Source: a virus
Taxonomy: Duplodnaviria > Heunggongvirae > Uroviricota > Caudoviricetes
Virus record (IMG/VR): IMGVR_UViG_3300026549_001031
Length of the DNA: 64,000 nucleotides
Direction: 5' to 3' (one strand)
Shown: piece by piece, positions 5,206 to 64,000 of the stretch
How positions within the stretch are numbered: the stretch's first letter is position 1
Layout: every line of letters starts with the position of its first letter
Notes under the pieces: generated by a model
What the model was told of the DNA's origin: nothing
The model's database searches: none
The model's input: only the letters and a program-made list of their open reading frames with translations
Program-made: the position numbers and the translations under genes

Positions 5206-6411
5206 ATGACTTTTAACAATGATGCAATACAGATTATGTATTTAGGCATTGCAGAGACAGTAGGTCCTAAAACAACAGACCTGGTTCAGAATGTATTTGC
5301 AGTTAAAAAAGTGCTTGACAGTCTGGATTGCAAAAGATTAGCTTCTTCAAGTATTGAGAAACTCAAGAAAGAAATTGAGGCCTCAGTAAATGATTACTGT
5401 AGCTCTGATGAAGTTGAAGTGGCAAATCAGAGATTGGTAATGAGTGGAGTTCTAGACTTAGCTAAAGAGGAATTACAGTTACTTACAAAGTTGCTTGAGA
5501 AGAATGAGCAGGACACAGAGGGTACAGGAAATACCTGTTGTAAACATGGAGATAGACATGAGTGTTCAGGAGAGTGTCACTGTCACAATAAAGAGGACAA
5601 GCAGGTAGAGGACATTGAGAATGAAGATGATACAGAGAATGAAGATGTGAGAGCAGCTAAAATTCTTGATAAGTCAGCTGATGCATTATCAAGTATCATT
5701 GATGGTTTACTCGGTATGGTTGATACAGTCAAGACAAGACCTGAAGATGTACCTAACGCCTTTGCAGGTAAAGTAAACGAGGCATTGAATTCTGCTAAGG
5801 AACTCAAGAGAGGCATTTCAGAAGAGATCAAAAGACGTGTTGCAGAGAAAGAGGCAGCAGCTGGTTTAGAGGATGATGAGGCAGCAGGACATAGCATTTA
5901 CTTTGGAGACAATGGAGTAGAAATTGACCTGCATAAGAAAGCAGCTGATGCAAGAAAGAAATATGCATCAAACAATGGTTTATGTCATCAGTGGCGTTTA
6001 AGAAAAGACCTGTTTCAGTGGTTCTATAATGGAACAACATTTGATAATAGTACAAGCTTTCAGGGAATCGCTGATGTACTTGGTATTCATATTGTTGTTA
6101 ACTGTACAGGAGTGCAGGAGATCAATGGAAAAGGAAAAGAATTCATTCTTATGGAAGTTGTAATGCCTGATAAGGATATCAAGTTCATTGCTAAAGATGT
6201 GATTGACATGCAGAAGATTGCACAGTCATATGCACAATACTACTTAAATGAAATGATGCAAAACGTTGTTGACTACAATGGAGCATTAGGATTTGAGGTA
6301 GAATACAGAAGAATGAAAGCAGAGTTAAATGGAGATACATCGTTCGAGCCCGAAAAGACATTAGCAGGCAAGGAATTGGAAAAGGAATTAAAGAGAAAGC
6401 CTTGGCTGTAA
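5206..6411 (+). CDS. acidic hypothetical protein (401 aa) with Cys/His cluster CCKHGDRHECSGECHCH
   Basis: ORF with strong AGGAGG RBS (5187-5192); possible metal-binding Cys/His patch at about aa 105-125. Confidence 0.6.
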   Translation: MTFNNDAIQIMYLGIAETVGPKTTDLVQNVFAVKKVLDSLDCKRLASSSIEKLKKEIEASVNDYCSSDEVEVANQRLVMSGVLDLAKEELQLLTKLLEKNEQDTEGTGNTCCKHGDRHECSGECHCHNKEDKQVEDIENEDDTENEDVRAAKILDKSADALSSIIDGLLGMVDTVKTRPEDVPNAFAGKVNEALNSAKELKRGISEEIKRRVAEKEAAAGLEDDEAAGHSIYFGDNGVEIDLHKKAADARKKYASNNGLCHQWRLRKDLFQWFYNGTTFDNSTSFQGIADVLGIHIVVNCTGVQEINGKGKEFILMEVVMPDKDIKFIAKDVIDMQKIAQSYAQYYLNEMMQNVVDYNGALGFEVEYRRMKAELNGDTSFEPEKTLAGKELEKELKRKPWL

Positions 6412-8741: not shown

Positions 8742-10523
8742 ATGACAGAACAGCAGGAGTTGAAAAACAAGCCGCAGAGAAAAAGAAAGAAAATAGCAAA
8801 TCCGAGTAAGGTTATGATAGTGATTATACTTATTGCTTATTTGGTATTTTCATTAACAAGTGCTTATATGAGCACTAGACCAGTAGATGGGGCAATTAGT
8901 TACAATGAATTACTTAAGAAATTACAAAGTGGAGACATTGAAAAAGTTAAGATCACTAAAGACGAGACCTCGGGAGTAGCAATTACAAAAGAAGGCAAGC
9001 AGTTAAGTTTTGTGAATCCTGGCAGTGATGATTTTGTAGAGACACTTATGAAAAATGGTGCTAGCATTGAAATTACAAAGAAAACAATGTTTAGTGCAGT
9101 AATGAATGTGGTAGCAACATTACCTATGATTATTTTAACAGCAATGTTAGCTTTATACATTGCAAGTACAATTGTTGGTGGTAACACTAAGAAGTTTACA
9201 CTGCTTAGGGATAAAAATAATGTAACAACCTTTGATGATATAAGAGGCATTACAGAAACAAAGGAAGAGGTCAAGTATTTAGTTGAGACAATCACTGATT
9301 GGCAAAAAGTTGCAGGGGCTGGAGCAAGAACAGTCAATGGTATTATGTTTTATGGACCTGCTGGAACAGGTAAGACATTGTTAGCAAAAGCGATTGCAAA
9401 GGAGGCAAAAGTTCCTTTCATTAGTGCTTGTGGTTCAGACTTCAATGAAATGTTTGTAGGTGTTGGGGCAGCTAGAGTAAGAGCATTGTGGGAATTAGCT
9501 GAGGCAAATGCACCTTGTATTATATTCATTGATGAAATTGATAGTTTAGGAAGTAAGCGTGGGAGTGGTGAGACACTTGGCATGAAAGATTCATCTAATA
9601 CAGTAAATGCTTTGTTACAGAAAATGGATGGATTGAATAAGACACCTGGAGTAATGGTGATTGCAGCTACTAACAGACTGGATGATTTAGATCCTGCATT
9701 GTTAAGATCTGGTAGGTTTGATAGAAAATTCTATGTTGGACCTCCAACAAATAAGAAAGACAGAGATGATATTGTTGAACTCTATTTGAAAGACAAGAGA
9801 TTAGAAGAGGGTGTGACAGTAGAGAAAATCAGTAAACTTTTGGTAGGTTTAACTGCTGCAGATATTGAAGAGGCTTTAAGCGATGCAGTTATGATTTCAT
9901 TCATGGATAAAAGAGATGGGGTGCTTAAGTACAGTGATGTAGACGAGGCAGTAATGAGATTAGCAACTAAGGGAGTTAAGAAAGAGCATTCATCTAAAAG
10001 AGATATTGAGATCAGTGCAATACATGAGGCTGGACATGCAGTCATGGGTTTATTGAATGGAACACCTATTGCAAAAGTAAGTGTTATAGCTTACACAGGA
10101 GGTATGGGTGGTGTTACAGTACCTGATCAAGATATCTTAGGGGATAATCAGTTAAAATTTGAGTCTGAATACATTGATGAAATCAAGATGTTACTTGCAG
10201 GAGAGGTTGCTGAAACATTGAAATATGGGCAGCATACACAGGGTTGTAGTTCAGACATTGCAGAGGCAACGGGGTTAGTTAGCAGAATGTACAGTGGTTG
10301 TGCATTTGGGGATCATATGGTTTCAGTTAATAAACTTGTCAATACTGGATTGGAACATTCATTTGATACAGATGCCATAAGAGTTTGTGATGAAATGCTT
10401 CTTGAATATGAGAAAGAGGTTAAGACAAGTTTAAGTGATAACTTTGATAAAGTAGAGAGACTTGCTGAAATGTTAATAAAAGAAAAAACAGTAGTCGATC
10501 CTACATTGGAAATGTTAAGTTAG
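8742..10523 (+). CDS. ftsH: FtsH-family ATP-dependent zinc metalloprotease (AAA+ ATPase + M41 peptidase), two N-terminal TM helices
   Basis: Walker A GPAGTGKTLLAKAIAKEAKVPF, Walker B CIIFIDEIDS, second region of homology AATNRLDDLDPALLRSGRFDRKF, zinc-binding HEAGHAVM; close match to canonical FtsH blocks; TM helices at about aa 25-45 and 120-145. Confidence 0.9.
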   Translation: MTEQQELKNKPQRKRKKIANPSKVMIVIILIAYLVFSLTSAYMSTRPVDGAISYNELLKKLQSGDIEKVKITKDETSGVAITKEGKQLSFVNPGSDDFVETLMKNGASIEITKKTMFSAVMNVVATLPMIILTAMLALYIASTIVGGNTKKFTLLRDKNNVTTFDDIRGITETKEEVKYLVETITDWQKVAGAGARTVNGIMFYGPAGTGKTLLAKAIAKEAKVPFISACGSDFNEMFVGVGAARVRALWELAEANAPCIIFIDEIDSLGSKRGSGETLGMKDSSNTVNALLQKMDGLNKTPGVMVIAATNRLDDLDPALLRSGRFDRKFYVGPPTNKKDRDDIVELYLKDKRLEEGVTVEKISKLLVGLTAADIEEALSDAVMISFMDKRDGVLKYSDVDEAVMRLATKGVKKEHSSKRDIEISAIHEAGHAVMGLLNGTPIAKVSVIAYTGGMGGVTVPDQDILGDNQLKFESEYIDEIKMLLAGEVAETLKYGQHTQGCSSDIAEATGLVSRMYSGCAFGDHMVSVNKLVNTGLEHSFDTDAIRVCDEMLLEYEKEVKTSLSDNFDKVERLAEMLIKEKTVVDPTLEMLS

Positions 10524-14511: not shown

Positions 14512-14868
14512 ATGAAATCAGACAGGGAAAAATTACAGGAGCACTTAAATAGAACAGATGGATCATTTGAGAATATAGTGTTATCATATATGATTAAAAA
14601 TCAGCAGGACTTTGATACAGAGAGAACACTTGAGTTTATTGAAATGATCAACAAAAATATGCTCAAGCATCTTATTAAGAGAGATGCAAGGGCAGTGAGA
14701 GTGGCTAAGGAGCGTGCAGGATATCTCGAGACGTATTTAGAAGGTAATATGTACACTACTAAAGAGGCAGAGGAAATTAACAAACCTGCACAGATAAATA
14801 ATGCTAAAGCAATATTAAATGCTTGTGATGGCAAAGATGAAGATGGAAATACAGTTGGTAGTTTGTGA
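14512..14868 (+). CDS. hypothetical protein (118 aa)
   Basis: ORF with GAGAGGACAT RBS; same frame as upstream gene, separated by TGA + 5 codons. Confidence 0.5.
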   Translation: MKSDREKLQEHLNRTDGSFENIVLSYMIKNQQDFDTERTLEFIEMINKNMLKHLIKRDARAVRVAKERAGYLETYLEGNMYTTKEAEEINKPAQINNAKAILNACDGKDEDGNTVGSL

Positions 14869-14879
14869 GGTGCAGAATA

Positions 14880-15761
14880 ATGAAATTTGAAGTCATTATA
14901 GGAAATCCTCCTTATCAAAATAAAAACAAAAGTATTTATCAGAATTTTATTGATTTAGCACTGCAGTTAAGTAACAGACATGTGGTAATTATATCAAAAG
15001 ACAATTGGTTAGTTGGAGATACACTTCAGAATGTAAGAAACCACATTGTAGAGAACGGGTTAGTTTACATACATGACTTTCCTATTAGAAAAGAGATCTT
15101 TAAGGATGCAAATGTTGCAGTGGCAATACTGCATGTAGACAATTATAAAAATAACGATACACATGAGTTTATTTATGAGTGTACTCAGAATGGAGAAACT
15201 AGAAAGAATTTAATAAGACCAATACTTACAAAAGACGGGTATGATATCATTTCAAATGAAGACGAGTACAGTATAGTAAGCAAGGTTACAAGTCATAGAG
15301 ATTTTGAATCATGGAATTTAACAAGAAACATAAGAATTTGGAGTGTGGCAAGTAATGGAAATTACATGCTTACAGACCGAACAGTAGATATTATAAAATA
15401 CACAGATAATAAAGAAAAAGACAGTGACATTAAGGTAATATTCATGAATAGTAAACATGACAGCTATTGTAAATATACAAATGCATTACCTAAAGGAAGA
15501 GATGGCGTTGATGAATATAAAGTTGTCTGTGGAAGTAAGGTGGGTAAGACAGGACAGGTAATAACATCACTATTGATGGTGAGACCTGGTGAAATAGTTA
15601 CTAACTCATATTCAATTATTGCTATAGTACATACAGAATATGAGGCAAATGCAGTGTATAAGTATGTACAGACAAGGTTGTTTAGAGAGTTGGTACATAT
15701 TGGAATTTCAGGAGACAGAGTTTCATTCAGTTACAGCTGTTCAAAATATGTACCTATGTAG
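14880..15761 (+). CDS. divergent 'headless' gamma-class N6-adenine DNA methyltransferase paralog (begins at motif IV NPPY, no SAM-binding motifs X/I)
   Basis: ATG 14880 gives MKFEVIIGNPPY, matching N-termini of paralogs at 18885 and 44097; C-terminal KYVP resembles FRFVP/TaqI RDFVP; track start 14865 is GTG without RBS. Confidence 0.6.
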   Translation: MKFEVIIGNPPYQNKNKSIYQNFIDLALQLSNRHVVIISKDNWLVGDTLQNVRNHIVENGLVYIHDFPIRKEIFKDANVAVAILHVDNYKNNDTHEFIYECTQNGETRKNLIRPILTKDGYDIISNEDEYSIVSKVTSHRDFESWNLTRNIRIWSVASNGNYMLTDRTVDIIKYTDNKEKDSDIKVIFMNSKHDSYCKYTNALPKGRDGVDEYKVVCGSKVGKTGQVITSLLMVRPGEIVTNSYSIIAIVHTEYEANAVYKYVQTRLFRELVHIGISGDRVSFSYSCSKYVPM

Positions 15762-18414: not shown

Positions 18415-18888
18415 ATGAAAAGGACAGTTAAGAATAAGTTAGTTACAAAGATGGTTAGTACAATTGCATGCGCAGTTGTACTTTGCACAAGTTTAGTAGG
18501 GTGTGGACTTGAGGATGTATTTACAAGCAGTACAGAGAACACTGAAAGTACAGAAGCTGACTCTGTTACACTTGGGGAGTTACTCAAAGTTGGACAGAAC
18601 GAAACAAAAGAGTTTACTGTAGGTGCAGAGTATAAAGTACTAGACGTTAATTATGCAGGTGCAGACCATATATTTCTGATACTCGCACTGGAGGATGTAA
18701 AAGATTATACAAGAACAGCATACGAAAGAGAACTTGGCTTTAGTAAAAATGACTATCTGTATGAGAGTATAATCAAGGGAGATACAATCAAGTTTACAGA
18801 GAAAAGTGTAGAGATCATTAAGAGTGCTGATGATACAGAGGATAAGGAAACAGATCAGAAAGCAGAAAAGGTAGAACAGCAGAAATGA
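18415..18888 (+). CDS. putative lipoprotein (157 aa)
   Basis: Signal peptide with lipobox LVGC (VVLCTSLVGCGLED); upstream GGACAGTTAAAATG initiation motif; stop overlaps next start (ATGA). Confidence 0.6.
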   Translation: MKRTVKNKLVTKMVSTIACAVVLCTSLVGCGLEDVFTSSTENTESTEADSVTLGELLKVGQNETKEFTVGAEYKVLDVNYAGADHIFLILALEDVKDYTRTAYERELGFSKNDYLYESIIKGDTIKFTEKSVEIIKSADDTEDKETDQKAEKVEQQK

Positions 18889-19781
18889 AATTCAGTGCAG
18901 TGATAGGAAATCCTCCTTACAATAAAGGAATGGATATAGACTTTGCTATTTTAGGGTTTAACTTGACAAGTAAATATATGACACTGATTATTCCTGCTAA
19001 GTGGCAGACATCAGAAAGAGATGGACAAGCAATTAGCAGATATAACTATGGTCAGTTTAGAGACACACTGGTTAAGCATATGAGCACAGTGTGTTTTTAT
19101 CCTGAAAGCAGCAATGTGTTTAGAGCTGCACAGAGTGATGGTATTACATACTTCCTTATTGATAAGGAAAATACATTTAATAAGTGTAAGGTCATTAACA
19201 AATGTGATGAGCAGGCATTATTTAATAATGAATGTACAAGAGAAATAATTAAGCAACAAAGTCTGAATAATTTAGGACAAGAGATAATTGAGTATATGAT
19301 GCCTTATAAATCTTTTAAGTGGCCTAATTTTAATGGTGGGCACTATGAGGTTTGGACAGCTAGAAAGCTATTGACTAGTGGTAATGGTAGGACAATCATT
19401 AGAAAAGATGGCAATACACAGGTAACTCAAAAGGTATTCATATATGATAACTTTAATGGGCAAGGTAATAATACTGCAGACTCATGTCAGGTTTATGCAA
19501 GTGATGATAAATTAAAGTGTGAGTCATTATCAAGTTATTTGAACACTAAGTTTGTAAGATTTTTCGTTCTAATGAATATAAGTAAGCTTACAGGAGTGTG
19601 TACAGACTACTATTATAGATTTGTACCTGAACCTCCTAACAGTGATTATGGGTTTAATCATGTATGGACGGATGAGGATCTGTATGAATATTATGGTCTG
19701 AACAGAGAAGATGCTAAAACAGCAAATGGAATAAGATACAGAGACATTATTGAAACAGTTGTAAAAGACAGAGAAAATTAA
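18885..19781 (+). CDS. 'headless' TaqI-like gamma-class N6-adenine DNA methyltransferase paralog (starts at NPPY motif IV; has IIPAKWQT and YRFVPEPP...WTDEDLYEYY C-terminal TaqI_C-like region)
   Basis: MKFSAVIGNPPYNKGMDIDF at N-terminus; IIPAKWQT matches M.TaqI VPATW block; C-terminal RFVP matches M.TaqI RDFVP; about 50% identical to 44097 and 61846 paralogs. Confidence 0.75.
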   Translation: MKFSAVIGNPPYNKGMDIDFAILGFNLTSKYMTLIIPAKWQTSERDGQAISRYNYGQFRDTLVKHMSTVCFYPESSNVFRAAQSDGITYFLIDKENTFNKCKVINKCDEQALFNNECTREIIKQQSLNNLGQEIIEYMMPYKSFKWPNFNGGHYEVWTARKLLTSGNGRTIIRKDGNTQVTQKVFIYDNFNGQGNNTADSCQVYASDDKLKCESLSSYLNTKFVRFFVLMNISKLTGVCTDYYYRFVPEPPNSDYGFNHVWTDEDLYEYYGLNREDAKTANGIRYRDIIETVVKDREN

Positions 19782-35891: not shown

Positions 35892-37295
35892 ATGAATGCA
35901 AGTGATTGTACATATGACAAGGAAAGAAGAACATTGATTGATGATAATGGACAGCCATTTGCGGCTTCAAACATTGAGCAGTTTAGGACATACTTAAGAA
36001 TAAATCCAGCATATATGTTAGACATATGTACAAGGACAGTTGGCATTGGGGAAACTCTAAAAAACATGATTAGCTGGGATAGCGCACAGGAGAAATTTGA
36101 TGAATCAGTAGAAAAGAAAGATTACAAGTTCATGTATACAGTGCATTTATTTTTAGAGACAATGTCAGAATACATGAGCGTAGTAAAAAATGACTCTAAC
36201 ATGGCTAATTTGATGTATGAGCAAGATGAAACAGGAAGTTACTTTAGAATTAAAAAGAATGCACTTGATACTATGGGACCTAACAAGTTGTTTATTTGCA
36301 ACGATGGTTTAAGTAGCAGTAGGTATGACAAATATACATCAGGTAAACTTGATTCAGACCAGATGAGTGTGATGGAGATACAGTGTTGTAAAACACTATG
36401 TACATATAACATAATTAACTGTGCAAGGTATGCTCAGAGTATGACATCTAAGAGGGAGTTTAATACAGAAGTAAGAAAGTTTAAGAAAGAGTTAGAAAAA
36501 GAATTGAGCAAGCTTGATGGAGAAGATGCAGCTAAAAAGATAGAGAATGTTAGTGAAAACCTAGGAGGCGGACAGGCAATAGAAGGCAATGGGCATGAGA
36601 GTGCAGGAGTCCAGCAGGTAGAGGAAAAGAGAGTAGAGACACATAGCAATAGTGAGTATACAAAAGCAGTTATGACAGGTGGGGTACTTCAATTTGCTAG
36701 ACAGACAGAGGATGGAGAGAATAGAATCAGGGTGTTTAGTAGTGAGGACAGTTTAATTGAGACTGCTGGACATTGTAAACAATATGTTGACTTCTTAATG
36801 GGAAAAGTAAGGAGTGCAGTAGATAAATTAGTATCTGCATATGAGGAAGTGGATTCTAACTCTGAAACAGTAGATGAAGCAGTAGATAAATTGATTGAGA
36901 ATCATCCTTTTGACATAAACTCCATGTTAATGGATGTGACCAACAGTGTACAAGAGGTACTGGTCATTACTAGAGGTAGAGAGGACATATATCAGGAGTT
37001 AAAAGATCATTTCATAATGTCAAATAAGAACATTCATGGAAAATTGTCTAAGGCATTTAAGGAAAAAGCAGACTTTGAGGATGAAAATAGTTCAGACATA
37101 TATTTAGGAATTGTGTCTAAACCTGTTGATAAGTTTGATACCCTGATTGACCCTTGGCTAAGCAGGGATGAGAAGAGAGAACTTGTAGATGGAGCAGAGC
37201 AGGCAGCTAGGATGCAGACACTTGCAATAATTAGAATGTCTAACTCAATTAAGAGTGATGAGTATACACTAGATACAGTGTGCACAATCAATTAA
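35892..37295 (+). CDS. hypothetical protein (467 aa)
   Basis: TTTAGGAGGATTGACTT RBS, ORF behind long non-coding region. Confidence 0.6.
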   Translation: MNASDCTYDKERRTLIDDNGQPFAASNIEQFRTYLRINPAYMLDICTRTVGIGETLKNMISWDSAQEKFDESVEKKDYKFMYTVHLFLETMSEYMSVVKNDSNMANLMYEQDETGSYFRIKKNALDTMGPNKLFICNDGLSSSRYDKYTSGKLDSDQMSVMEIQCCKTLCTYNIINCARYAQSMTSKREFNTEVRKFKKELEKELSKLDGEDAAKKIENVSENLGGGQAIEGNGHESAGVQQVEEKRVETHSNSEYTKAVMTGGVLQFARQTEDGENRIRVFSSEDSLIETAGHCKQYVDFLMGKVRSAVDKLVSAYEEVDSNSETVDEAVDKLIENHPFDINSMLMDVTNSVQEVLVITRGREDIYQELKDHFIMSNKNIHGKLSKAFKEKADFEDENSSDIYLGIVSKPVDKFDTLIDPWLSRDEKRELVDGAEQAARMQTLAIIRMSNSIKSDEYTLDTVCTIN

Positions 37296-37317
37296 AAATA
37301 GTTTGGAGGACAGCTGA

Positions 37318-39045
37318 ATGGACTTTAGTATCATAGAGGCAGATGATAAATACATAGGTGGAGATAGATATGTACTTATAGACAATGATAGTATAATGGA
37401 GTTTGACACAGTAGATGAATTTGTCAGCATGGCTAGGAAAGTTAGTAGACTTAACAATATAGTGCTTGGCAATCTGAGTTTGCTAGCACATACACTTATT
37501 GAAAGATATAGGCCTAGATACAATAAGAGTTTATCACTAAAGAGTTTATTTGTTCAGTTGAAATCAGAGGACTGTACAAGCATAGAACTGGAAAATACAT
37601 TCAGAAGTTTTGCTGAACTTAAGATAATATATGATATACTTATGGGAAGATATCATAGACATATGAAAGAATTCTTCCTGCATAATAAAAATAGAAAGGT
37701 TGACACTCTTTACATAAGGGATGCGTTGGAATATGTGAAAATTAGCACTGGTATTAAAAACTGGGCAGACAGTAATGAGGTTTATGCAAGTAGCAGAGAA
37801 CTAAAAGCAATGAGTTTAATTGAGCATGCATATAATATTGAGCATATAAACAAGAAGATTGGCATTGACTTTGATGTAGTGTATCAGCATGGAATTGATA
37901 CAGGCAGCATATTGGGGGATGTGCAAGTTGTACCCGGTGAAGTCATAGGATTTCCTGATGATGCTAGCAACTGGTTTGTAAGGAGTGTATCACTAGGTAT
38001 TGGGGATAAACAGGTGCCGATTGGTCAAGCAGCATATAATACTGTTACACATGAAAAGGTGTTCACTTCAGACAGTGATCAACCTGGTAGCATTTATTAT
38101 AAACCTTCGTATCATGGAGACTATATAATAAGTCTTATTGGTTCTAATTTGGAACAGTTGAACTTTAAGGTTGATGGATATGTAATACATATAAAACCTA
38201 TGGATATACTTAGGGATAAAGCAGGTAATACAGGGTTTTATGATGTGTTTAGCAAGGAAAGAAAGGCAAGACTTGTAAGAAATAATCATTTTGTAGGATT
38301 TGAAAGCCTTGAGGAAACATTAAATGCATTTAACAGTAATGTTGAGATCTTAGGTGCTTTTAAATTAGGTTTATTAACAAATATACACTTATTTAAGGAT
38401 AAGATCATGTATATATTTAATAAGGAACAGCTGCTAAAGAAGATAGTATCATTTAATGAATTACTTGACAGTGGAGAGACAGTAGATAGCTTAAATAATA
38501 GAAGGTACAGCATACTAGAAGACTATGTGGTACATGCAAGAGCAGTAGTAGAGGCATATCAATTATATAGTATACTTACTGATACAAAGAGAGGATTAAG
38601 AATATTAAGAGGGCTTCCTGATAACTACATATTTTCAATGAATCCATCATTATGGGGAAATATTGAGGGCAATGTAGTAGAAGGAAACAGCAGTGGAGAA
38701 GCAAAGTTTAGTCAACTAGATTGCAGTATACACAATGGTAGAGAAATTGAAATCTCTGATATAATAATGAAGGACATACTGGATGAAAGCGAGTACATTG
38801 ATTATAAAAATAGTTTAGACAAGTGGACAGCTAATAATAGAATTGGACACAATGATAAATTGAATAAGTCATATGTAATTGCAGCATATAACATTTATGT
38901 AAAATTTAAGGCTATGTATGATAATTATTTAGCACGAGTAGGGTATTCAAGGTTACCTTTGGAAGATATAAAGACATTGGATAGTTTAAGGGTAAAAGAG
39001 TTTGGTAGATTGAACTCTCATGGAAAAGTGATGATACAAGAATAA
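37318..39045 (+). CDS. hypothetical protein (575 aa)
   Basis: GGAGGACAGCTGA RBS. Confidence 0.6.
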   Translation: MDFSIIEADDKYIGGDRYVLIDNDSIMEFDTVDEFVSMARKVSRLNNIVLGNLSLLAHTLIERYRPRYNKSLSLKSLFVQLKSEDCTSIELENTFRSFAELKIIYDILMGRYHRHMKEFFLHNKNRKVDTLYIRDALEYVKISTGIKNWADSNEVYASSRELKAMSLIEHAYNIEHINKKIGIDFDVVYQHGIDTGSILGDVQVVPGEVIGFPDDASNWFVRSVSLGIGDKQVPIGQAAYNTVTHEKVFTSDSDQPGSIYYKPSYHGDYIISLIGSNLEQLNFKVDGYVIHIKPMDILRDKAGNTGFYDVFSKERKARLVRNNHFVGFESLEETLNAFNSNVEILGAFKLGLLTNIHLFKDKIMYIFNKEQLLKKIVSFNELLDSGETVDSLNNRRYSILEDYVVHARAVVEAYQLYSILTDTKRGLRILRGLPDNYIFSMNPSLWGNIEGNVVEGNSSGEAKFSQLDCSIHNGREIEISDIIMKDILDESEYIDYKNSLDKWTANNRIGHNDKLNKSYVIAAYNIYVKFKAMYDNYLARVGYSRLPLEDIKTLDSLRVKEFGRLNSHGKVMIQE

Positions 39046-39065
39046 GATAAGGTAGGACAGTTAAA

Positions 39066-40526
39066 ATGGTAGGAATACATAAATCAGCATTTAGACCTTG
39101 CATGGATAAAGTGAATGGAGTCTTAAGATTAAGAAAAATTAGCACAGATACAGAGGATCTAGCAGGAGAGAAAGTAAATGACAATAACTATACAGATTAT
39201 AGCACTATTGATGAAATGTTTGATAGTTTTAGATCAGACAATAGGGTTGTAACCCAGTTTATGTGCAGAACATGTGATATAGTTTACAGAATAGTTGAAG
39301 CATACAGGGATAAAAACAATGCATATATCATGGAGCATACAGAATATCATAAGGACTTATTAGAGTTAGCATATAGGTGGTATGCATGGGAATCACTTAA
39401 AAGCAAAGACAAGTGTGTAAAGACATACTTTAGAGAAGATATGACACCTGAGAGAATAGTAGACAAGGAGAGCAGAAGATATAAGCTTGCAGCAACAGTG
39501 AAGGACAAGGGTGAAAAATTAAGGGTACTTGGTATTTGGAGTAGTGTACCTAGTGAATATGAAGCTGACATTAAGAAAGAAGTGGTTCAGCATTACTTTG
39601 GAATAGAAAGCAGTAATGATGAATTGTTTATACTTAGTGCAGTTAAACTTGCAAGAGAGATTGATAAGGACTTCTACAATAAAGGGGTTAATCTTGGTTT
39701 GGTTTATGATCACACAATAGAGTCTGGGTTGCAAATTATCAAAGGAAGATACCTTGACATTAACACTAGTAGTCGTATAGTATTATGTGAGTTGTTTGCT
39801 AGTGATGGAGTAAACAAGTTCTTTATTGGTATAGCTGAATGGCATGGGCTAATGACTAACCTGCTTAGTGTATATCAGCAATTTGCAGTACGTATTGGTG
39901 GAAAGACATATGATATATCATCACCAAGCATTACTCATATGAACAAGCGCTATTCAAAGTTTTTACATGCAGACACTTATGGTCTATTGTCAGATAGGGG
40001 AGTAAGGGTAACGTATGACACAGCTGATGAGGCACTTACAGCAATAAGAGAATGCAGTAGTTTTGTTTCTGTTACACATAATCATTTGATGCTGGCATGT
40101 GGAGAGTTCTTTAGAACATTTAAGGATGTAAATCAAGAAGAAAGTAAATTTAGAGAATACATATATGGTACTACTAAATACTCCGATGATGCAGGAGATA
40201 TACTTCATTATTTACTAGGGTCATATGTAGAAAATTATGTATTAACATATGAGAATACTGACATGGCATTGGAGGTAGCACATGAGGCAGGGTTTATTAT
40301 GTGTAATAAACAGGGTTTTTGCCTTGAGTTTCCAGATATAGAGGATGCATACATAGGTGATAAAATACTTGAGCAGTGGTTAACAAAAGATGAGCTTAAG
40401 AAATTAAGGACAAGTGACAGGGATAGAGAGATGCTATGGCTTGCAGCTTATAGGATTGCAATGAATCTTAGGACAGAATACATGAAATATTCTGAAGTTA
40501 TGAGTGACTCGTGGGATAGACTTTAA
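39066..40526 (+). CDS. hypothetical protein (486 aa)
   Basis: GGTAGGACAGTTAAAATG initiation motif. Confidence 0.6.
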   Translation: MVGIHKSAFRPCMDKVNGVLRLRKISTDTEDLAGEKVNDNNYTDYSTIDEMFDSFRSDNRVVTQFMCRTCDIVYRIVEAYRDKNNAYIMEHTEYHKDLLELAYRWYAWESLKSKDKCVKTYFREDMTPERIVDKESRRYKLAATVKDKGEKLRVLGIWSSVPSEYEADIKKEVVQHYFGIESSNDELFILSAVKLAREIDKDFYNKGVNLGLVYDHTIESGLQIIKGRYLDINTSSRIVLCELFASDGVNKFFIGIAEWHGLMTNLLSVYQQFAVRIGGKTYDISSPSITHMNKRYSKFLHADTYGLLSDRGVRVTYDTADEALTAIRECSSFVSVTHNHLMLACGEFFRTFKDVNQEESKFREYIYGTTKYSDDAGDILHYLLGSYVENYVLTYENTDMALEVAHEAGFIMCNKQGFCLEFPDIEDAYIGDKILEQWLTKDELKKLRTSDRDREMLWLAAYRIAMNLRTEYMKYSEVMSDSWDRL

Positions 40527-44096: not shown

Positions 44097-45041
44097 ATGA
44101 AATTTAGTATTGTCATTGGAAATCCTCCTTATAACAAGGGGATGGATATAAATTTCATACAGATAGGATACAAGATCAGTAGAGAGGTTTGTTGCATGAT
44201 AGTTCCTGCAAAGTGGCAAACAGCAGATGATGAGTACAGTGGGACAAATTATGCTAACTTTAGAAAAGAAATAGTTCAGCATATGAAAGAAGTGGTATTT
44301 TATCCTTGTAGCAAGGATATCTTCGATATATTACAAGTAGATGGAATTACATACTTCTTATTAGACAAAGAGGTACATGAGAAATGTCTAGTGTCTAACA
44401 GATGTAGTGTGTATAAAACACTAGAAAGTGATGGAATATACAGAGATATAAGAAACAGACAGAGTTTATTAAACTTTGTTGACAATATAATAAATAGACT
44501 TGGGCAGTATGAGAAATTTAGGTTCAATCATATAAGTATGGGCAGCAGGTTCAGAGTTTATATGAACAATAAGGCAGGTGGTGGAGCGTTTGCAAGTGCA
44601 GACATAACAGAGGGATGTAAGGATAGGGAAACTAGAAAAGTGTTCTTTACAGGTGCAAGTTATATAGAGGACACTTTGGGAATAGATAAGACATGTGGGA
44701 TTCATAGAGAGAATAGGACAGCTGAACAGTTAGTTTTTACATCAGACAGTAAGGAAGAATGTGAGAACTTTATAATGTATTTGAATACAAGGTTTGTTCA
44801 GATGTTACTTTCTGGAAATCAGAGTAAACTTAGTTGCATTTTGACAGATGATTGTTTCAGGTTTGTACCTAGCATTGAAAATGAAATTGGTACAGATGGG
44901 AAAATAGGGTACCAACATAAGTGGACTGACGAGGAATTATATGAGAAATATAACATCACAGAGAAAGAACAGAGAGACATTGAAAGTTATGTAAATAGAC
45001 GTGAGAATTATGGATTGATGAAAGAGAAAGATGGTGAATAA
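44097..45041 (+). CDS. 'headless' TaqI-like gamma-class N6-adenine DNA methyltransferase paralog (starts at NPPY)
   Basis: Own extended -10 TGGTATAAT (44065-44073) and AAAGAGGAACAAG RBS; MKFSIVIGNPPYNKGMDINF, IVPAKWQTAD, FRFVPSIEN...WTDEELYEKY. Confidence 0.75.
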   Translation: MKFSIVIGNPPYNKGMDINFIQIGYKISREVCCMIVPAKWQTADDEYSGTNYANFRKEIVQHMKEVVFYPCSKDIFDILQVDGITYFLLDKEVHEKCLVSNRCSVYKTLESDGIYRDIRNRQSLLNFVDNIINRLGQYEKFRFNHISMGSRFRVYMNNKAGGGAFASADITEGCKDRETRKVFFTGASYIEDTLGIDKTCGIHRENRTAEQLVFTSDSKEECENFIMYLNTRFVQMLLSGNQSKLSCILTDDCFRFVPSIENEIGTDGKIGYQHKWTDEELYEKYNITEKEQRDIESYVNRRENYGLMKEKDGE

Positions 45042-57959: not shown

Positions 57960-58418
57960 ATGAAGAAAGCAGTATTAAAAATTGAAAAAGATGGAGTAAA
58001 AATATTTGAGGCATCCTTATCAAATGGTATAGGATTGATTTATCAGGACAGTGAAGTTGCTATTTATGATCAGAGACTAAATATTGAGTACTATACTCAT
58101 TTGATCAGTTACAAGGATAAATTAGTTGCAATGATTATCAGTAGTGACAATGATGTTGCAGAAGTAAACCTGTTCATTAAAGATGGATCATTGAAAGCTT
58201 GGTTCACTACAGATGCTGGGGATGGAGATATCATTGATGCTGGTTTAGTGCAGAATATGTTAGGAACTAAGTTCAAGGGATTTGGAGAATTATATGATAT
58301 AATTACACAGGAGTATGAGGATATGACATTGATAACAATGTATACTAACATGTCACCTGATGGTAAATCATATAAACCCAATACAAAGCATTTGGAGTGG
58401 GCATACACACAGGCATAG
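57960..58418 (+). CDS. hypothetical protein (152 aa), paralog family F
   Basis: KIFEASLSNGIGLIY block shared with 58437 gene. Confidence 0.55.
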   Translation: MKKAVLKIEKDGVKIFEASLSNGIGLIYQDSEVAIYDQRLNIEYYTHLISYKDKLVAMIISSDNDVAEVNLFIKDGSLKAWFTTDAGDGDIIDAGLVQNMLGTKFKGFGELYDIITQEYEDMTLITMYTNMSPDGKSYKPNTKHLEWAYTQA

Positions 58419-58436: not shown

Positions 58437-58895
58437 ATGATAAGTAAGTTACTTTTGCAATTAACATATGACAAAGAAAAGATATTTGAGGCATCTGTAT
58501 CAAGTGGGCTTGGACTAATTTATACAGGAGAGGACATTGAATATAAGGAATTTACATTTGGTCCTGATTACATAGCAGTTGTAGTTTATAGAAAAGATAA
58601 AGTGATTGCACTGTTTGAATTAGATTGTAACATAGTGAAATCAATTCATACATTCAGCAAGGATAATAATTTAGATGCATATGTCATTACAAAAAATTGT
58701 AAGGAAAGTGTGGATGCTGCAGTTACACTAGGTGTAATGCTTGAGCAAAATGTATGCACAGTGGCTAATAAGTTCAATGTACATTGTAAAGTATTGGATG
58801 GCATTCAAGTCACAAGTATGTACATTGACTTACAAGATTATATCAGAGATAAAAATACAGCACTACGTTATAGTTGGGTATTAAATAAAGTTTAA
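58437..58895 (+). CDS. hypothetical protein (152 aa), paralog family F
   Basis: Tandem paralog (KIFEASVSSGLGLIY). Confidence 0.55.
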   Translation: MISKLLLQLTYDKEKIFEASVSSGLGLIYTGEDIEYKEFTFGPDYIAVVVYRKDKVIALFELDCNIVKSIHTFSKDNNLDAYVITKNCKESVDAAVTLGVMLEQNVCTVANKFNVHCKVLDGIQVTSMYIDLQDYIRDKNTALRYSWVLNKV

Positions 58896-58966: not shown

Positions 58967-59845
58967 ATGAAAGCATCAAATAAAATTTTAGGAGCAGTAT
59001 TAGCATTAGCTATGACAGTAGGAACAGTAAGTGGAGCACCTGTTGCAGGTGATGTACTTGGAGCAGAAACAGTGCAGGCAGCTACAAGAACAAAGAGTGT
59101 TACAATTAGTAACGTTAAGAATGGAAAAGCTACCTTATATACAGGGCAGAGTTTATCATTTAAGACGAACTATAAAGAAAATCAGTTGAAAGTGTCTACA
59201 TCAGATAAAAGCGTGGTCAGCGTAAAAGGTATTAAGATCACAGGAGTAAATAAAGGAACTGCAAAGATTACAGTGGCTGTTAAAAGCAATACAAAAGTAA
59301 AAAAGACTATTACAGTAAAAGTTGTGGATAGGTATATTATCAGAAAGAGTTGTGAAGGTGGTAATGCAGTTACAGAAAAGTATGACAGAAAGACAAAGAA
59401 GAGCACATATACAGTTGCTATGACAGGTACAGATGAGTTAAATAAAGCAGATATCAGTGTAAAGTTTAAGTTTACATCTAAGGCTACAAATCTGACAGGT
59501 ACAAGATATGCAGGAGAATTAAATAATGGTGAAGGTTGTGGTCTTAGACTATACAACATGACAAAAGATGACTCATACAAACAGATTATTGATTTTAACA
59601 AGAAATCAGATAAAGAGCTTTACAAATATTATGAGCTGACAAAGGCAGAAATCAAGCAGACAAAGTTTACACGTAATAATACAGATGCAGGGTATGTGAT
59701 GGCATCTGTTGTTCCACATGGCAAAAACGGACTTATTAAGGAATGTTTAATCAAAGACAAGGAAACAGGAACATTATATAAATTAGAGTATCGGGGTAGC
59801 GAAGATCCGTATGCAGTATATAAGAGTGTAAAAGTCATAAAGTAA
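58967..59845 (+). CDS. secreted protein with signal peptide and bacterial Ig-like (Big_2) domain
   Basis: Signal peptide MKASNKILGAVLALAMTVGTVSGAPVAG; Big_2-like SVTISNVKNGKATLYTGQSLSF...KVSTSDKSVVSVKGIKITGVNKGTAKITVAVK. Confidence 0.7.
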   Translation: MKASNKILGAVLALAMTVGTVSGAPVAGDVLGAETVQAATRTKSVTISNVKNGKATLYTGQSLSFKTNYKENQLKVSTSDKSVVSVKGIKITGVNKGTAKITVAVKSNTKVKKTITVKVVDRYIIRKSCEGGNAVTEKYDRKTKKSTYTVAMTGTDELNKADISVKFKFTSKATNLTGTRYAGELNNGEGCGLRLYNMTKDDSYKQIIDFNKKSDKELYKYYELTKAEIKQTKFTRNNTDAGYVMASVVPHGKNGLIKECLIKDKETGTLYKLEYRGSEDPYAVYKSVKVIK

Positions 59846-59875
59846 CAAGCATAAATAACTAAAGATTTAGTTGTT

Positions 59876-59915
59876 AACAGAGGACTCAGGTGTTTGGACA
59901 CTTGGGTCCTTTTTG
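59876..59915 (+). terminator. candidate Rho-independent terminator (GGACTCAGGTGT...ACACTTGGGTCC stem + TTTTTGTG)
   Basis: 12-bp stem with G-U/mismatch positions followed by T-run, 30 nt after stop of 58967 gene. Confidence 0.5.
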
Positions 59916-59991
59916 TGTACATAAATTTCTACATGAATTTAATTAAAATTGAAATTTTATATTTTTAATAATTTATAAGAGGTAATAGAAG

Positions 59992-61736
59992 ATGAGCATG
60001 TTATTAAGAGGACAAGACAGTATTGATGAAGTTTTGAGGCTATCTAAAGATCATGATAGCATTGAAAAACTTAATGAGACACAAGAAAGTGAAGATAACA
60101 TTGGGTACACAAAAGGAAAAGAACTGGAAAATTCTGGAAATGAGGAGTCAGAGTTAACAGACAATAAAGAAAAGGCAAAAGGCAGTGAGTCAGCTGAAAA
60201 TAACATTGAAGAAGAAAACAAACAGGAGGATAAGAGTAAATCATTAGGGGGTTTAATTAAACGCGGAGCAGAAGCATTAGCAACACTAGGATTAATAGCA
60301 GTCACAGAAAAGCAGATAGAAGAGACACATCAATTGAGAGTCTTTGCAACTTGTACATGTAAAGGTTCTTGCGGTAATAATTGTAAAGGTTGCAGTGGTA
60401 GTTGTAAAGATAGTTGTGTTTCAGGTTGTACAGGAAGTTGCAAAGGTGACTGTAATACAACATGTCATGGTGGCTGTAAAAATGGGTGTCATACAAGTTG
60501 TAATGGCGGTTGTAAGGGTGGTTGTAATAAGTTATGTAAAGGCGGATGTAAGACGTCATGTAAAGATGGATGTGCAAATGCATGTGGTGGGTGCAAAGGT
60601 GGTTGTGCACATGACTGTGCTAATTGTAAAGATAGTTGTAAGGGTGGTTGTATACATGGTTGTGGTGGTGATTGCAAAGGTTCATGCAAGGAAGGATGTA
60701 AAGGTTCATGCAAAGGCAGTTGCAAAGGTGAGTGTAAAGATGGCTGCAAGGGAGATTGTAAGGGCAGTTGCAATACTGGATGCAAGGGAGATTGTAAGGG
60801 CAATTGCAAAGGAAGTTGCAACACCGGCTGTGATAGTTCATGCAAGGGAGGTTGCAAGACAGGTTGTAACACTTCATGTACAGGCAGTTGTAGTGGCGGT
60901 TGTAATACTTCATGTTCAGGAGGATGTGATGGCTATTGTGGAGGTTCTTGCAGTAGTTCCTGTGGTGGAGACTGTTCAGGAAGTTGTGGATCCTGTGACT
61001 CAGGATGCTACAGTTCTTGCAAGACAGGCTGTTATCAAGGATGCACAGGAAGTTGTGGACAGGGATGTGCAAGTGGATGTGATAGTACATGCACAGGATC
61101 CTGTGACACTAGTTGTAATACTTCTTGCAATACAAGTTGTACTGGATCATGTGGTAGTGGGTGTGAAAGCACTTGTGAAGGATCATGTAAAGGACAATGT
61201 GACACAGATTGTAATGGATGTACAGGAACTTGTAATGGTAGTGCAGCAAGTACTTGTGGTGAGAGCTGTGAAGGTGGCTGTAAGACAACATGTAATACAA
61301 GTTGCACGGGGGCATGCACAACTAGTTGCAGTGGAGAAAGTAGTGGATCAGACACAGGTTGTAATGGATCATGTAAGGCAGAATGTACAGGCTGTACAAC
61401 TACTTGTGGAGCAGATTGCTCAAGTGGATGCAACACAAGTTGTTCAAGTAGTTGCAGTAACGGATGTAAAGGCAAATGCACAGATTCCTGTACAGGCAGT
61501 TGCATAGGACAATGTTAGGTACTTGTATAGGCACATGTAATACAGGATGTATGACAGGATGTAAGACAGGTTGTAAAGAGGCATGTGCAGGAACTTGTTT
61601 AGGTGGATGCACCGGTTCATGTAAGATGACAGCCCAAAGTACAACACCTGGTGGAGGAAATGGTGGGACAGTTGTGCCTGGTGAACAACCTGGAAGCACT
61701 AACAGAGATAGAATACATACAGTAATAGTAAATTAA
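59992..61736 (+). CDS. giant cysteine-rich C-x3-C tandem-repeat protein (about 580 aa, more than 100 Cys); reading frame needs -1 shift near 61513-61518
   Basis: Frame 1 ORF 59992-61518 (acidic N-terminal 100 aa then ...CKGSCGNNCKGCSGSCKDSCVSGCTGSCKGDC... for about 400 aa); frame 0 continues CLGTCIGTCNTGCMTGCKTGCKEACAGTCLGGCTGSCK to TAA 61736 keeping the 4-residue Cys period. Confidence 0.6.
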
Positions 61737-61845
61737 ACAAAGTGTTTATAAGTAGGACATGTCATATAAAAGGCATGTCCTATTTTTATGCATAGAAGTA
61801 TAAAAAGAGAATTTTTATTTTTAATTAAAGTTGGGAGGAATAAGC

Positions 61846-63185
61846 ATGTCTGATGTAATTGAGCAGTTATATGGAGATAGGGTACCTGGTACAAATATAG
61901 TGTTTACACCTGAAAATGTTGTAGAGGAAATGATGAGTAGACTTCCTGAAGATTTCTGGACACCTGACAAAAGAATATTGGACATATGCAGCAAGTCAGG
62001 TAGATTTCTGAAATATGCATTTAACAAATTATATAAATCACCTTATTTAAGTGAAATGACACCTAATGAGAGAAAGAGGCATATAATTGAAAATCAGTTG
62101 TTTGGACTGTCAAATGACTTTACATGTCTAGTTTTGGCAGAAACAACACTATATGGTTTTGCACAGTATGGAAAAAGAAACATTAAGCTTGTATCAAATT
62201 TAGAGGCAGTAGTAAAAAGAGTAGATAGACAGAGTGAACTTGGAAAGGAGACAGGTTTTGATATGCATTTCGACTTAGTAATTGGAAATCCCCCTTATAA
62301 TAAGGGCATGGATATTGATTTCATAGATCTTGGCTATGAATTAAGTAAACAGTATACAGTGATGATAGTGCCTGCAAAGTGGCAAACAGCAGATGCAAAT
62401 CAGAGGATCAGTAGTAAAATGAGTTATGGACAGTTCAGAGAGAAGCTAGTCCCTCATATGAAATATGTATGTTTTTACCCTGACTGCTTAGACGTTTTTG
62501 GTATTCAAGAGCAGTCTGGGGTTAGCTGGTTTATTTTAGATAAGAGCAATACATATGAGGATAGTTGCACAGTAGAAAATAAGTGTAACTTACAGAAATA
62601 TGCTAATGGCATTGAGAAAAGAGATATAACTCACAGACAAACCTTATGGAACATAGGAAATAAAATAATTGAGCACTTAAATAGGGGGGGCAGTACAAAT
62701 CATATGAGTTTAGTCCTATAGAAAATAGAAAAGCATACACACTTAACATGAATACACAAATGGCACTTGGTACATGTTCATCTGGTGCATGGGATTTCGA
62801 CATGGGTGGAATAAAGAAAAGCTTTATAGGCAAAGGTGGAGTATTGTTTAATCAGAGTGGACAATTGAATCTAACAAATAAAGCACGCTTATTAAGAGGG
62901 GTTGAAAAGTCAGGCATAAGTGCATCAAAAGATGTCTTTACTTCTGATGACATAGACGAGTGTAAATCTTTTTATACATGGATAAATAGCAAATTTACAA
63001 GGTTTTTTATACTGATCAACATTAGTTCATTAACAATTTTAAATGACAACACATTCAGGTTTGTCCCTTGTCCTCCTCATAATTCCTTTGATCACCTGTA
63101 TACAGATAAGGAGCTGTATGATTGGTTTAACCTACCAGAGGAATATAGGGAAGTCATAGATAGTATCCTACGAGACCGTAAATAA
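61846..63185 (+). CDS. full-length TaqI-like gamma-class N6-adenine DNA methyltransferase, split by poly-G(7) tract at 62684-62690 (intact with G8)
   Basis: ATG 61846 after GGGAGG; motif X/I VFTPENVVEEMMSRL...ILDICSKSGRFL (cf. M.TaqI VETPPEVVDFM...LEPACAHGPFL), motif IV LVIGNPPY, IVPAKWQTAD; second ORF 62748-63185 carries FRFVPCPP...YTDKELYDWF; inserting one G joins ...LNRGG to QYKSYEF..., restoring homology to paralog 44097 (GQYEKFRF). Confidence 0.75.
62684..62690 (+). repeat. G7 homopolymer inside methyltransferase coding sequence (candidate slipped-strand phase-variation switch)
   Basis: Only long G run in an AT-rich window; length 7 = OFF (stop 14 codons later), length 8 = ON. Confidence 0.6.
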
Positions 63186-63332
63186 TAAAATCACAAGCAG
63201 TATAATAAATTTAGTTTAACAGGTTGTAAAAAGAGAGATTCATAAATAAAAGAAGATACACAGATATGAAAATAAGATATAGCATTTGTATAAAATAATA
63301 TACATTGAGTTATAGGTCTGATATGCAATAGG

Positions 63333-63361
63333 TTGATTTTTATAGAAAAACATGGTATAAT
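63333..63361 (+). promoter_or_regulatory. sigma-A promoter TTGATT-N17-TGgTATAAT (copy of 58907 promoter)
   Basis: TTGATTTTTATAGAAAAACATGGTATAAT. Confidence 0.6.
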
Positions 63362-63402
63362 ATAAATAGAGATTGGAAGAGAGTTAAGCGAGGGACTCAA
63401 GA

Positions 63403-64000
63403 ATGAAAATAAGCAGTTCAGAATTAGCAAGAGTACAAGGACAATTATGTGTAAGTGCATATAGATATTTAAGAGGACTTAACAGAGAAATAAGTGATAG
63501 TTCTGAGGATAAACTCTTAGATGATTTCAATGATGCATATAGAGAATATGCTAAGGTCATGCATGATGAGTTTAATACATTAACTCCTGCAACAGCACCA
63601 GAGATTGCTAAAACAATCGTAGAAGAGTGTAATAGATGCAGCCTTGACTTGAGTGCATTCTGGGAAAGAAGGATAAGTGATGCAGTAAAAATCAAGTATG
63701 GAACATTCAAGAGAATAATACCTGACATAAGTAGATATGAGTTTACAGTGATTTGTGAAATTGATCATGTGGATTACGAGATCGGATGCATTGACATTTG
63801 GAGAAATAGTTGGAAATTCTATAACATTGCAGATGAGGCAATGGAAGTTGATGACACAATTACAGTAATGATAGACGGAAGGGCACATGATATTTGTAAA
63901 GTACACTTTTTAAGTGTAAAAGATCCTTTCTGTAAAAATAACATAGCAATGTATAACAGTTATTGCATAAAAGTTGAAAGTTACATTTACAATTATGATT
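63403..64000 (+). CDS. hypothetical protein, 3'-partial (runs off window end)
   Basis: ATG 63403 after promoter and GCGAGGGACTCAAGA; open for 199 codons to window end; not in track because no stop inside window. Confidence 0.45.
   Translation, partial: MKISSSELARVQGQLCVSAYRYLRGLNREISDSSEDKLLDDFNDAYREYAKVMHDEFNTLTPATAPEIAKTIVEECNRCSLDLSAFWERRISDAVKIKYGTFKRIIPDISRYEFTVICEIDHVDYEIGCIDIWRNSWKFYNIADEAMEVDDTITVMIDGRAHDICKVHFLSVKDPFCKNNIAMYNSYCIKVESYIYNYD

Follow-up and report, generated by a model that had tools for sequence, protein, structure and literature searches.

Why does the only full-length DNA methyltransferase (MTase) gene of a large, phage-like element break into two reading frames at a run of seven guanines, and is this break an error, a scar, or a state of the gene that can be undone? 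The question is raised by a 64,000-nucleotide stretch of IMG/VR virus record IMGVR_UViG_3300026549_001031 (Caudoviricetes), called the window in the following, near the end of which the catalytic and the recognition part of the MTase meet out of frame at a G7 tract. Comparison with relatives in public data leads us to favor, with a probability of roughly 0.7, a hypermutable tract that toggles the frame of the MTase by slipped-strand mispairing, with the window showing the gene in its OFF state.

Under this model, the tract would gain or lose guanines by strand slippage during replication. With the flanking sequences of the window, G8 or G11 would yield the full enzyme of 446/447 amino acids (aa), while G7, G9, or G10 would lead to a stop 5–10 codons further on and leave a catalytic domain without recognition domain, which is presumably inactive. 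This would amount to bet-hedging: the target motif would be methylated in some progeny genomes and left unmethylated in others. Methylation would shield the former from host restriction enzymes whose specificity matches, and the latter would escape methylation-dependent restriction together with any cost of methylation. The slippage rate, reversibility in a population, the activity of the enzyme, and the selective benefit are parts of the model that we infer.

A G7 tract divides the methyltransferase gene

An original prediction made from the window's letters had proposed that a G7 tract at 62684–62690 splits the MTase gene, and reading the two open reading frames (ORFs) confirmed this: ORF A, which encodes the catalytic domain, runs in frame 1, and ORF B (62748–63185) lies in frame 0. 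ORF A ends with ...NRGGSTNHMSLVL, including a 9-residue out-of-frame tail (STNHMSLVL), and its stop follows nine sense codons after the last tract codon instead of the 14 codons counted originally. One additional G at the tract creates a continuous ORF (...IEHLNRGGQYKSYEFSPIENRKAY...) with its stop at 63183–63185, which on recounting encodes 446 and not 445 aa. The protein restored in this way aligns with intact relatives of 446–447 aa at 90–95% identity. The closest full-length relatives are intact (P0001, 95% identity, ...NKGGGQY...; P0002, 90%, ...NRGGQY...; proteins and contigs from public data carry P and L numbers, respectively) and begin at the same start as the MTase of the window. The predicted alignment of the restored protein with the paralog at 44097 was likewise recovered; it crosses the junction with 37% identity (E 2e-61), and the paralog reads ...NRLGQYEKFRFNHI... 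The split gene is indeed the only full-length MTase of the window, since three other paralogs lack the 139 N-terminal residues that bind S-adenosylmethionine (AdoMet).

The uninterrupted G repeat lies inside the coding sequence of the MTase, as it does in contingency loci, and AGG GGG GGG is a rare way of encoding R-G-G in this DNA, with an expectation of 0.0037 from codon usage. In a window with a G+C content of 34.7% and 23% G on the displayed strand, the tract is the only long G homopolymer, as had been stated, and the sole run of at least seven G or C; it is followed in length by a G6 at 57281.

Tract length and reading frame vary together among relatives

About 645 homologues of the MTase were found in public data, and many of the loci compared here were retrieved via OFF-state proteins. 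Among them, the tract ranges from G7 to G11 with the frame changing accordingly, which supports the signature of slipped-strand ON/OFF switching that had been proposed. Public contigs with the AATA-Gn-CAGTAC context of the window carry G7 (n = 8, OFF), G8 (n = 6, in frame; L002, L003, L004, L005, L011, and L012), G9 (n = 9, OFF), or G11 (n = 1, ON). In this context G8 and G11 give 446/447 aa, and the OFF products across G7, G9, and G10 are proteins of 287–292 aa accompanied by a 145-aa ORF. In other flank contexts, the tract is in frame as AAA followed by G9 (L001) and out of frame as AGA followed by G10 (L010), the latter with a split into 291 + 145 aa like that of the window, while its relative P0160 is in frame and intact. 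L001–L003 are syntenic with window positions 51.8–64 kb at 89–91% nucleotide identity, and intact relatives at the locus read ...NRGGQY... with G8 (L002; P0139, P0143, and P0171) or ...NRGGGQY... with G11 (L037/P0144).

Further support for slipped-strand switching comes from a pair of contigs of a sister lineage, from purifying selection on the 3' side of the tract, and from a second poly-G site. The protein of this sister lineage, P0122, ends with ...NRGGAVQII*, was found on 16 contigs, and goes with G9 in all six that were fetched. L031 (G9, split into 287 + 145 aa) aligns over 6,866 bp without a single mismatch to L037, which carries G11 and an intact 447-aa gene, and their sole gap is one of 2 nucleotides (nt) at the tract; the two come from different rumen samples and not from one population. 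The ORF B protein of the window goes with G7 in seven fetched contigs and with G9 in three, spanning at least nine samples.

The more distant homologues (L015–L029) carry no G run of this kind. In the loci fetched up to that point, 11 of 12 G/C runs of at least seven lay in 28 kb of MTase-homologous DNA and one of 12 in 202 kb of other DNA. This single outlying run marks the end of a fragment of a different adenine MTase, a 117-aa N-terminal piece of the D12 class (Dam-like) at 1519–1872 of L011 (minus strand) that ends 2–3 codons past a G8 at 1528–1535. It is weakly supportive because the remainder of the gene is absent.

The G7 allele recurs in independent assemblies

Long G runs are prone to sequencing errors, and the true genome might carry G8 with the window under-calling the homopolymer, an alternative that the original prediction had itself named. 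Within 1.2 kb the window shows three single-base homopolymer deletions relative to three relatives (at 61515, 61812, and 62684), which fits this alternative. A contig of the same strain in another JGI dataset (L044; 3300026526, contig Ga0256869_1087603) is 100% identical to 62656–64000 and breaks off 28 nt upstream of the tract, possibly due to poor read quality there; this assembly break could also reflect mixed tract lengths in that sample. However, a 104.7-kb Logan contig (L030/L038, SRR8442993) matches window positions 59736–64000 exactly and shares all three deletions including the G7. In 59348–59735 it differs from the window at 40 positions, 39 of them in 59348–59549, and this differing upstream patch identifies it as a separate assembly of a close strain. 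The G7 is therefore no isolated artefact of a single assembly. P0121, which is exactly the protein of ORF A, moreover occurs on five public contigs from JGI, Logan, and ENA, three of which are 0.2–1 Mb in size, and G7 is also found in short-form copies of the gene (see below) from at least five further samples. Besides SRR8442993 and JGI 3300026526, the element is carried by JGI 3300039431, SRR7971121, and SRR11059937, and the sister lineage is present in SAMEA5383954, SAMEA5383940, and SAMEA5383968; public read sets thus include G7, G8, G9, and G11 alleles on backgrounds that are close to identical. Over 51.8–61.5 kb, the window has no other frame-breaking 1-base indel of its own relative to L002. 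A systematic collapse to G7 is not seen either, because comparable assemblies report G8, G9, G10, and G11 at the tract. On the strength of the identical 4.26 kb in the Logan contig and of the five contigs with P0121, we regard a sequencing or assembly error as very unlikely and consider G7 to be a real, heritable allele.

Recoding does not readily explain the split

A real G7 would not switch the gene OFF if -1 ribosomal frameshifting on G_GGG_GGC, or slippage of RNA polymerase on the G run, still produced the full-length enzyme from it. The frame-1 tract is formally a slippery heptamer (G GGG GGC), and a -1 shift would give exactly the protein encoded with G8. However, the 108 nt starting at the tract form no more stable a fold than shuffled sequences do (z = +1.2), with 181 of 200 shuffles reaching at least the same stability, and the out-of-frame arrangement is not conserved, since relatives carry the gene in one frame. 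Of the features of a programmed -1 frameshift, the heptamer is thus present, while a stable downstream structure and a conserved two-frame layout are not. The different alleles would also need opposite shifts, -1 for G7 and +1 or -2 for G9 and G10. Efficient transcriptional slippage in bacteria is documented for A/T runs of about nine or more, not for short G runs. Taken together, we consider recoding to be extremely improbable.

Alternatively, independent translation of ORF B could supply the second piece of a bipartite enzyme. This is unlikely, since ORF B is not preceded by a Shine-Dalgarno sequence, L002 has ATT in place of its ATG, which is thus not conserved, and its product would begin only after 19 residues of the recognition domain and miss part of a predicted strand.

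Purifying selection beyond the tract argues against decay

The tract could also be a mutational hot spot of no adaptive value, i.e., a fragile site in a dispensable MTase gene that is being lost in several lineages, with G7 as an early pseudogene state. Decay of this kind should leave traces beyond the tract. Yet, in the 492 nt that follow it, the ratio of non-synonymous to synonymous divergence (dN/dS) is 0.02–0.06 among lineages that are all OFF, with synonymous divergence (dS) of up to 0.39. The underlying counts are 11 synonymous and 3 non-synonymous changes between the window (G7) and L031 (G9), 25 and 2 between the window and L010 (G10), and 30 and 5 between L031 and L010. No second lesion, i.e., stop or frameshift, follows the tract in any of these three OFF copies. 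Such values imply that the frame has been translated for most of that time, which argues against pseudogene decay. The OFF states moreover differ in length (7, 9, and 10), pointing to independent origins, and ON and OFF alleles exist on otherwise identical DNA (L031/L037). A second, independent poly-G site in another allele of the recognition domain, described below, also speaks against this reading. Strong purifying selection, the lack of a second lesion, and three OFF lengths are what a reversible switch would predict and what decay would not.

Several points nevertheless weigh against the switch, and some of them are directly in line with decay. Non-repeat frameshifts occur in the same region and show that ordinary mutation causes loss of function there as well: in L003, an A4 to A5 change at 6001–6011 (window position 62090) splits the MTase into 90 + 359 aa despite an in-frame G8, and in the lineage of the window a T3 to T2 change at 61515 breaks the adjacent Cys-rich gene, which is also broken in L002 by a change from G5 to G4. 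OFF proteins are found on many contigs (16 for P0122, five for P0121), compared to one or two for each ON protein; retrieval via OFF-state proteins is biased toward OFF, though, so frequencies of ON and OFF are not estimable from contig counts. The retention of an uninterrupted tract over the sampled lineages is not statistically significant (P about 0.23–0.28 on a tree of 0.64 substitutions per four-fold site), and we therefore do not claim selection for the repeat itself. A lone G7 in 64 kb is also expected by chance and not statistically unusual, given that 73 of 100 dinucleotide shuffles of the window contain at least one such run (mean 1.39). Its significance consequently rests on its position and on the comparison with relatives, not on its presence. 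Furthermore, G7 is at the short end of the tract lengths that slip efficiently, and long G runs are susceptible to sequencing error, although the G9 allele was recovered in six independent assemblies. Finally, heterogeneity in one population, the switching rate, and reversion would all have to be deduced from comparing assemblies. Weighing these points against the pattern of selection beyond the tract, we judge non-adaptive decay to be unlikely, and reversible switching remains our preferred reading.

A second poly-G site and a possible exchange of recognition domains

A different allele of the target-recognition domain (TRD) in the same MTase family carries its own poly-G run, in the context TTTC-Gn-ATG. 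At this second site, L014/P0012 has G10 and an intact gene of 425 aa (ON), while L013/P0008, whose locus shows synteny with that of the window, carries G8 and is split into 310 + 117 aa. P0168 and P0164 read as G9 at this site and are truncated or split.

Both kinds of TRD occur in different combinations with N-terminal domains. Besides the full-length gene, the window encodes three short-form paralogs (14865–15761, 18885–19781, and 44097–45041; Table 1), which begin at the equivalent of Met140 just before the NPPY motif. Over 34 nt at the PAKWQ motif, 44196–44229 and 62362–62395 are 97% identical, while their parent proteins are only 37% identical. Mosaic genes switch parents near PAKWQ (L010) or near CFYP (L013), and N-terminal and recognition domains are found in all combinations (N1+TRD-A, N2+TRD-A, N1+TRD-B, N2'+TRD-B, and short+TRD-A/B). 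The nearly identical stretch, the mosaics, and the domain combinations suggest an exchange of modules. It is tempting to combine these observations into a diversification of methylation specificity in two layers, with TRD modules that recombine at conserved core motifs and are distributed over a full-length expression gene and truncated paralogs, each module with its own poly-G gate; this idea is tentative and, in our estimate, rather doubtful. If it were true, the choice of the methylated motif and the presence or absence of methylation would both vary in a population, and the giant phage-like element would diversify its methyltransferase with cassettes in the manner of pilE/pilS.

Short forms are widespread and were also seen in L004, L005, L011, L012, L016, L019, and L025–L029 as intact ORFs with 35–55% mutual identity. 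Some carry the same poly-G tracts in ON and OFF states (P0133, P0164, and L040–L047). Directly downstream of the MTase copy, three contigs encode a small serine recombinase (Resolvase domain, 249–255 aa), located at 2712–3479 of L004, 10586–11335 of L010 (minus strand), and 1893–2642 of L012 (minus strand). The genomic context of these three contigs differs from that of the window, and L012 additionally carries an apparent bacterial efflux-pump gene.

The predicted enzyme and the layout of its locus

The product of the restored gene is predicted to be a stand-alone gamma-class N6-adenine DNA methyltransferase. This assignment follows from Pfam scores (PF07669 Eco57I, 39.6 bits at a cut-off of 25.3; PF02384 N6_Mtase, 25.8 bits at a cut-off of 20.4), from the position of motif I (LDICSKSGRFL, residues 44–54) N-terminal to motif IV (NPPY, residues 148–151), and from fold matches. 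A sequence search of the PDB with the MTase found no relative, and comparison of folds was needed. An AlphaFold (AF2) model built with 25 homologues in the alignment reached a predicted local distance difference test (pLDDT) score of 88.5 and a predicted template modeling (pTM) score of 0.88, and its best solved match in Foldseek is CamA (E 1e-12, probability 1.0), with HsdM subunits of Type I systems, PglX/BrxX, and M.TaqI (E 3e-7) also matching. The earlier description of the enzyme as TaqI-like is thus a fair label. Like the restored MTase, CamA, an orphan N6-adenine MTase of Clostridioides difficile (PDB 7LT5, 8CXS, and further entries), and M.TaqI (1AQJ) have a gamma-class catalytic domain followed by a C-terminal recognition domain, though at only 13–17% identity and with template modeling (TM) scores of 0.35–0.44. 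To our knowledge, neither CamA nor M.TaqI is phase-variable.

In the family alignment, the middle of the protein is variable and the C-terminus conserved. Compared with the consensus of the family (...YL----GKY...), the tract falls into an insertion of three residues, and residues 280–285 of the AF2 model form a coil after the helix 269–279 at the junction of catalytic and recognition domains. The 446-aa protein consists of MTase and recognition domains and has no nuclease domain, and a Pfam scan of the proteins encoded next to it gave no match and no detectable restriction partner. A fused enzyme of Type IIG (Eco57I-like) or a PglX of bacteriophage exclusion (BREX) systems was considered and rejected, as accessory domains and partner genes are missing and the NCBIfam PglX model scores 14.6 at a cut-off of 500.

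The gene is preceded by a ribosome-binding site (RBS) at a spacing of 7 nt from its ATG and, further upstream, by a terminator-like hairpin that divides the MTase from a Cys-rich gene and is kept in L001–L003. A consensus scanner did not call this hairpin because its loop exceeds 8 nt. In the AT-rich stretch between hairpin and RBS, the window and L030 have T5 at 61812 where L001–L003 have T6, a difference that could affect promoter spacing. Within the gene, Met140 does not vary among 25 full-length homologues and corresponds to the start codon of all short-form paralogs; that it might serve as an internal start is no more than conjecture.

Table 1. Features of the MTase locus and MTase paralogs of the window (aa, amino acids; RBS, ribosome-binding site; TRD, target-recognition domain).
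Feature	Position	Strand	Description and basis
Terminator-like hairpin	61754–61789	+	AGGACATG / CATGTCCT stem, 12-nt loop, then T run; sequence reading
RBS GGGAGG (61833–61838) and ATG (61846–61848) of the MTase	61833–61848	+	Sequence
ORF A, catalytic domain, 291 aa	61846–62721	+	Frame 1, TAG stop at 62719–62721; sequence, Pfam
Internal ATG (Met140)	62263–62265	+	Alignments, repeat families
Poly-G tract, G7	62684–62690	+	Encodes R280-G281-G282; sequence, relatives
Frame-0 continuation, TRD and conserved C-terminus (FRFVP...DHLYTDKELY)	62691–63185	+	Contains ORF B
ORF B, 145 aa	62748–63185	+	Frame 0; mechanically listed ORF
Short-form MTase paralog, 314 aa	44097–45041	+	Starts 7 residues before NPPY; different TRD, no G tract
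Short-form MTase paralog, 298 aa	18885–19781	+	Homology
Short-form MTase paralog, more divergent, 298 aa	14865–15761	+	PF07669, 37 bits

Comparison with known phase-variable systems

Phase-variable MTases are an established route by which bacterial pathogens randomize their epigenome and their restriction barrier. In phasevarions, phase-variable Type III mod or Type I hsd MTases control regulons in Haemophilus, Neisseria, Helicobacter, and Streptococcus. The locus described here is similar in that a simple sequence repeat would toggle a DNA methyltransferase. However, phasevarions are defined by the set of genes that responds to the state of the MTase, whereas this locus is known from sequence alone, and its predicted enzyme is a monomeric gamma-class Type II-like orphan. 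The term phasevarion should not be claimed for it, and on a phage-like element, being shielded from restriction or exposed to it would be a more obvious consequence than regulation.

Poly-G/C tracts are also found in phase-variable restriction-modification and MTase genes of Campylobacter jejuni and Helicobacter pylori (PMC6321876, PMC3936762, PMC8437040). As in these contingency loci, an intragenic G run of 7–11 nt is present here, a change by one unit alters the reading frame so that the enzyme is truncated, and tract length varies between near-identical genomes. Unlike them, the locus has a Clostridia-type background (with relatives in Lachnospiraceae, Oscillospiraceae, and Erysipelotrichaceae) and not one in Campylobacterota, lies on a large, ORFan-rich, phage-like element, and encodes a stand-alone MTase with no detectable nuclease partner.

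Among phages, hypermutable polyG tracts have been described in genes for receptor-binding proteins of Fletchervirus, which infects Campylobacter (Sorensen et al. 2021, Cell Rep 35:109214, cited by PMC12823448 and bioRxiv 10.1101/2025.10.21.683753). These phages share with our locus poly-G runs of 7–11 nt inside viral or mobile genes, which generate, or in our locus would generate, ON/OFF subpopulations. The preprint also mentions, as not studied further, a polyG tract in a methylase gene of the Bordetella phage BPP-1, and it reports contingency loci for the coliphages T2 and T4 (bioRxiv 10.1101/2025.10.21.683753). BPP-1 thus sets a precedent for poly-G in a phage methylase gene. The evidence presented here comes from comparing metagenome assemblies and not from experiments, and the tract travels with exchangeable recognition-domain modules and is also present in 5'-truncated paralogs. 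In the literature we found few phase-variable MTases of phages or phage-like elements and none from rumen or gut Clostridia. The locus would be a known kind of switch in an unstudied host range and genome type, with unusually clear comparative support.

If the switch is real, the element hedges between methylated and unmethylated progeny, which bears on large mobile genomes that face both methylation-sensitive and methylation-dependent defenses. In many assemblies, automatic annotation lists the gene as a pair of "hypothetical" ORFs, a split that should not be taken for an error or a pseudogene.

The element and the neighbors of the methyltransferase gene

All 61 ORFs of at least 120 aa in the window lie on a single strand. 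Nearly all of 30 window proteins that were scanned with Pfam and PHROG lack a family match; the only matches are an FtsH-like protease, an HD domain, an SPFH protein, and the MTase paralogs, and no phage hallmark gene was found among these 30. The window has no detectable tRNA genes and uses the standard genetic code. A recoded megaphage similar to Lak phages was ruled out because TAG serves as a stop in 20 of the 61 ORFs. Public contigs that carry the locus reach sizes of 0.41–0.55 Mb, and relatives of the MTase are found in genomes of Roseburia, Agathobacter, Lachnospiraceae, Oscillibacter, and Erysipelotrichaceae as well as in contigs of IMG/VR and in L010, whose record bears the name Siphoviridae sp. 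ct87j35. Searching the INPHARED phage collection with the locus resulted in no DNA match and a single protein match at 21% coverage, and a scan of IMG/VR for the exact flank pattern gave no copy of the tract locus. Calling the element a phage is therefore an assumption, made from its gene organization, the contigs of 0.41–0.55 Mb, and the relatives in IMG/VR and in the Siphoviridae record; the best available description is that of a huge phage or other giant element of rumen or gut Clostridia.

The FtsH-like AAA+/M41 protease encoded at 8742–10523 is full-length and includes an extracellular domain. Among PHROG families it matches phrog_30773 best (E 5e-93), and tblastn matches at around 31% identity include ftsH of Pseudomonas jumbo phages such as PA5oct. 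Families of repeated 460–490-aa proteins without family match flank the MTase locus on both sides (35892–40526 of the window, and downstream of the MTase in L001–L003). Tandem paralogs of 152 aa are encoded at 57960–58418 and 58437–58895, and L031–L037 lack the 292-aa gene and the Cys-rich gene that the window has between this pair and the MTase.

The Cys-rich gene at 59992–61736 encodes a protein that has no Pfam match and consists of C-x3-C-type repeats (CKGSCKGDCKGSC...) over nearly its whole length. Several long ORFs in its other frames are artefacts of these repeats, and the public gene call in L030 uses one of them (387 aa). Where L001, L002, and L003 have TTT, the window has TT at 61515, which divides the gene into 59992–61518 and 61476–61736 and the protein, 581–582 aa long in relatives, into 508 aa and a continuation of 73 codons in another frame. 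As L030 shares this deletion, it is a real allele, located outside any long repeat. The break of the gene in L002 corresponds to window position 60247.

Upstream of it, the gene at 58967–59845 encodes the 292-aa protein and contains the roughly 200 bp (59348–59549) in which the window differs from L030 at 39 positions. One more mismatch follows at 59735 before the 4.26 kb of full identity begin. This is a hypervariable or recombined patch and unlike the product of a diversity-generating retroelement (DGR), because the changes are not adenine-specific. The exact version of the 292-aa protein seen in the window occurs only on contigs of about 1 kb, which come from four samples.

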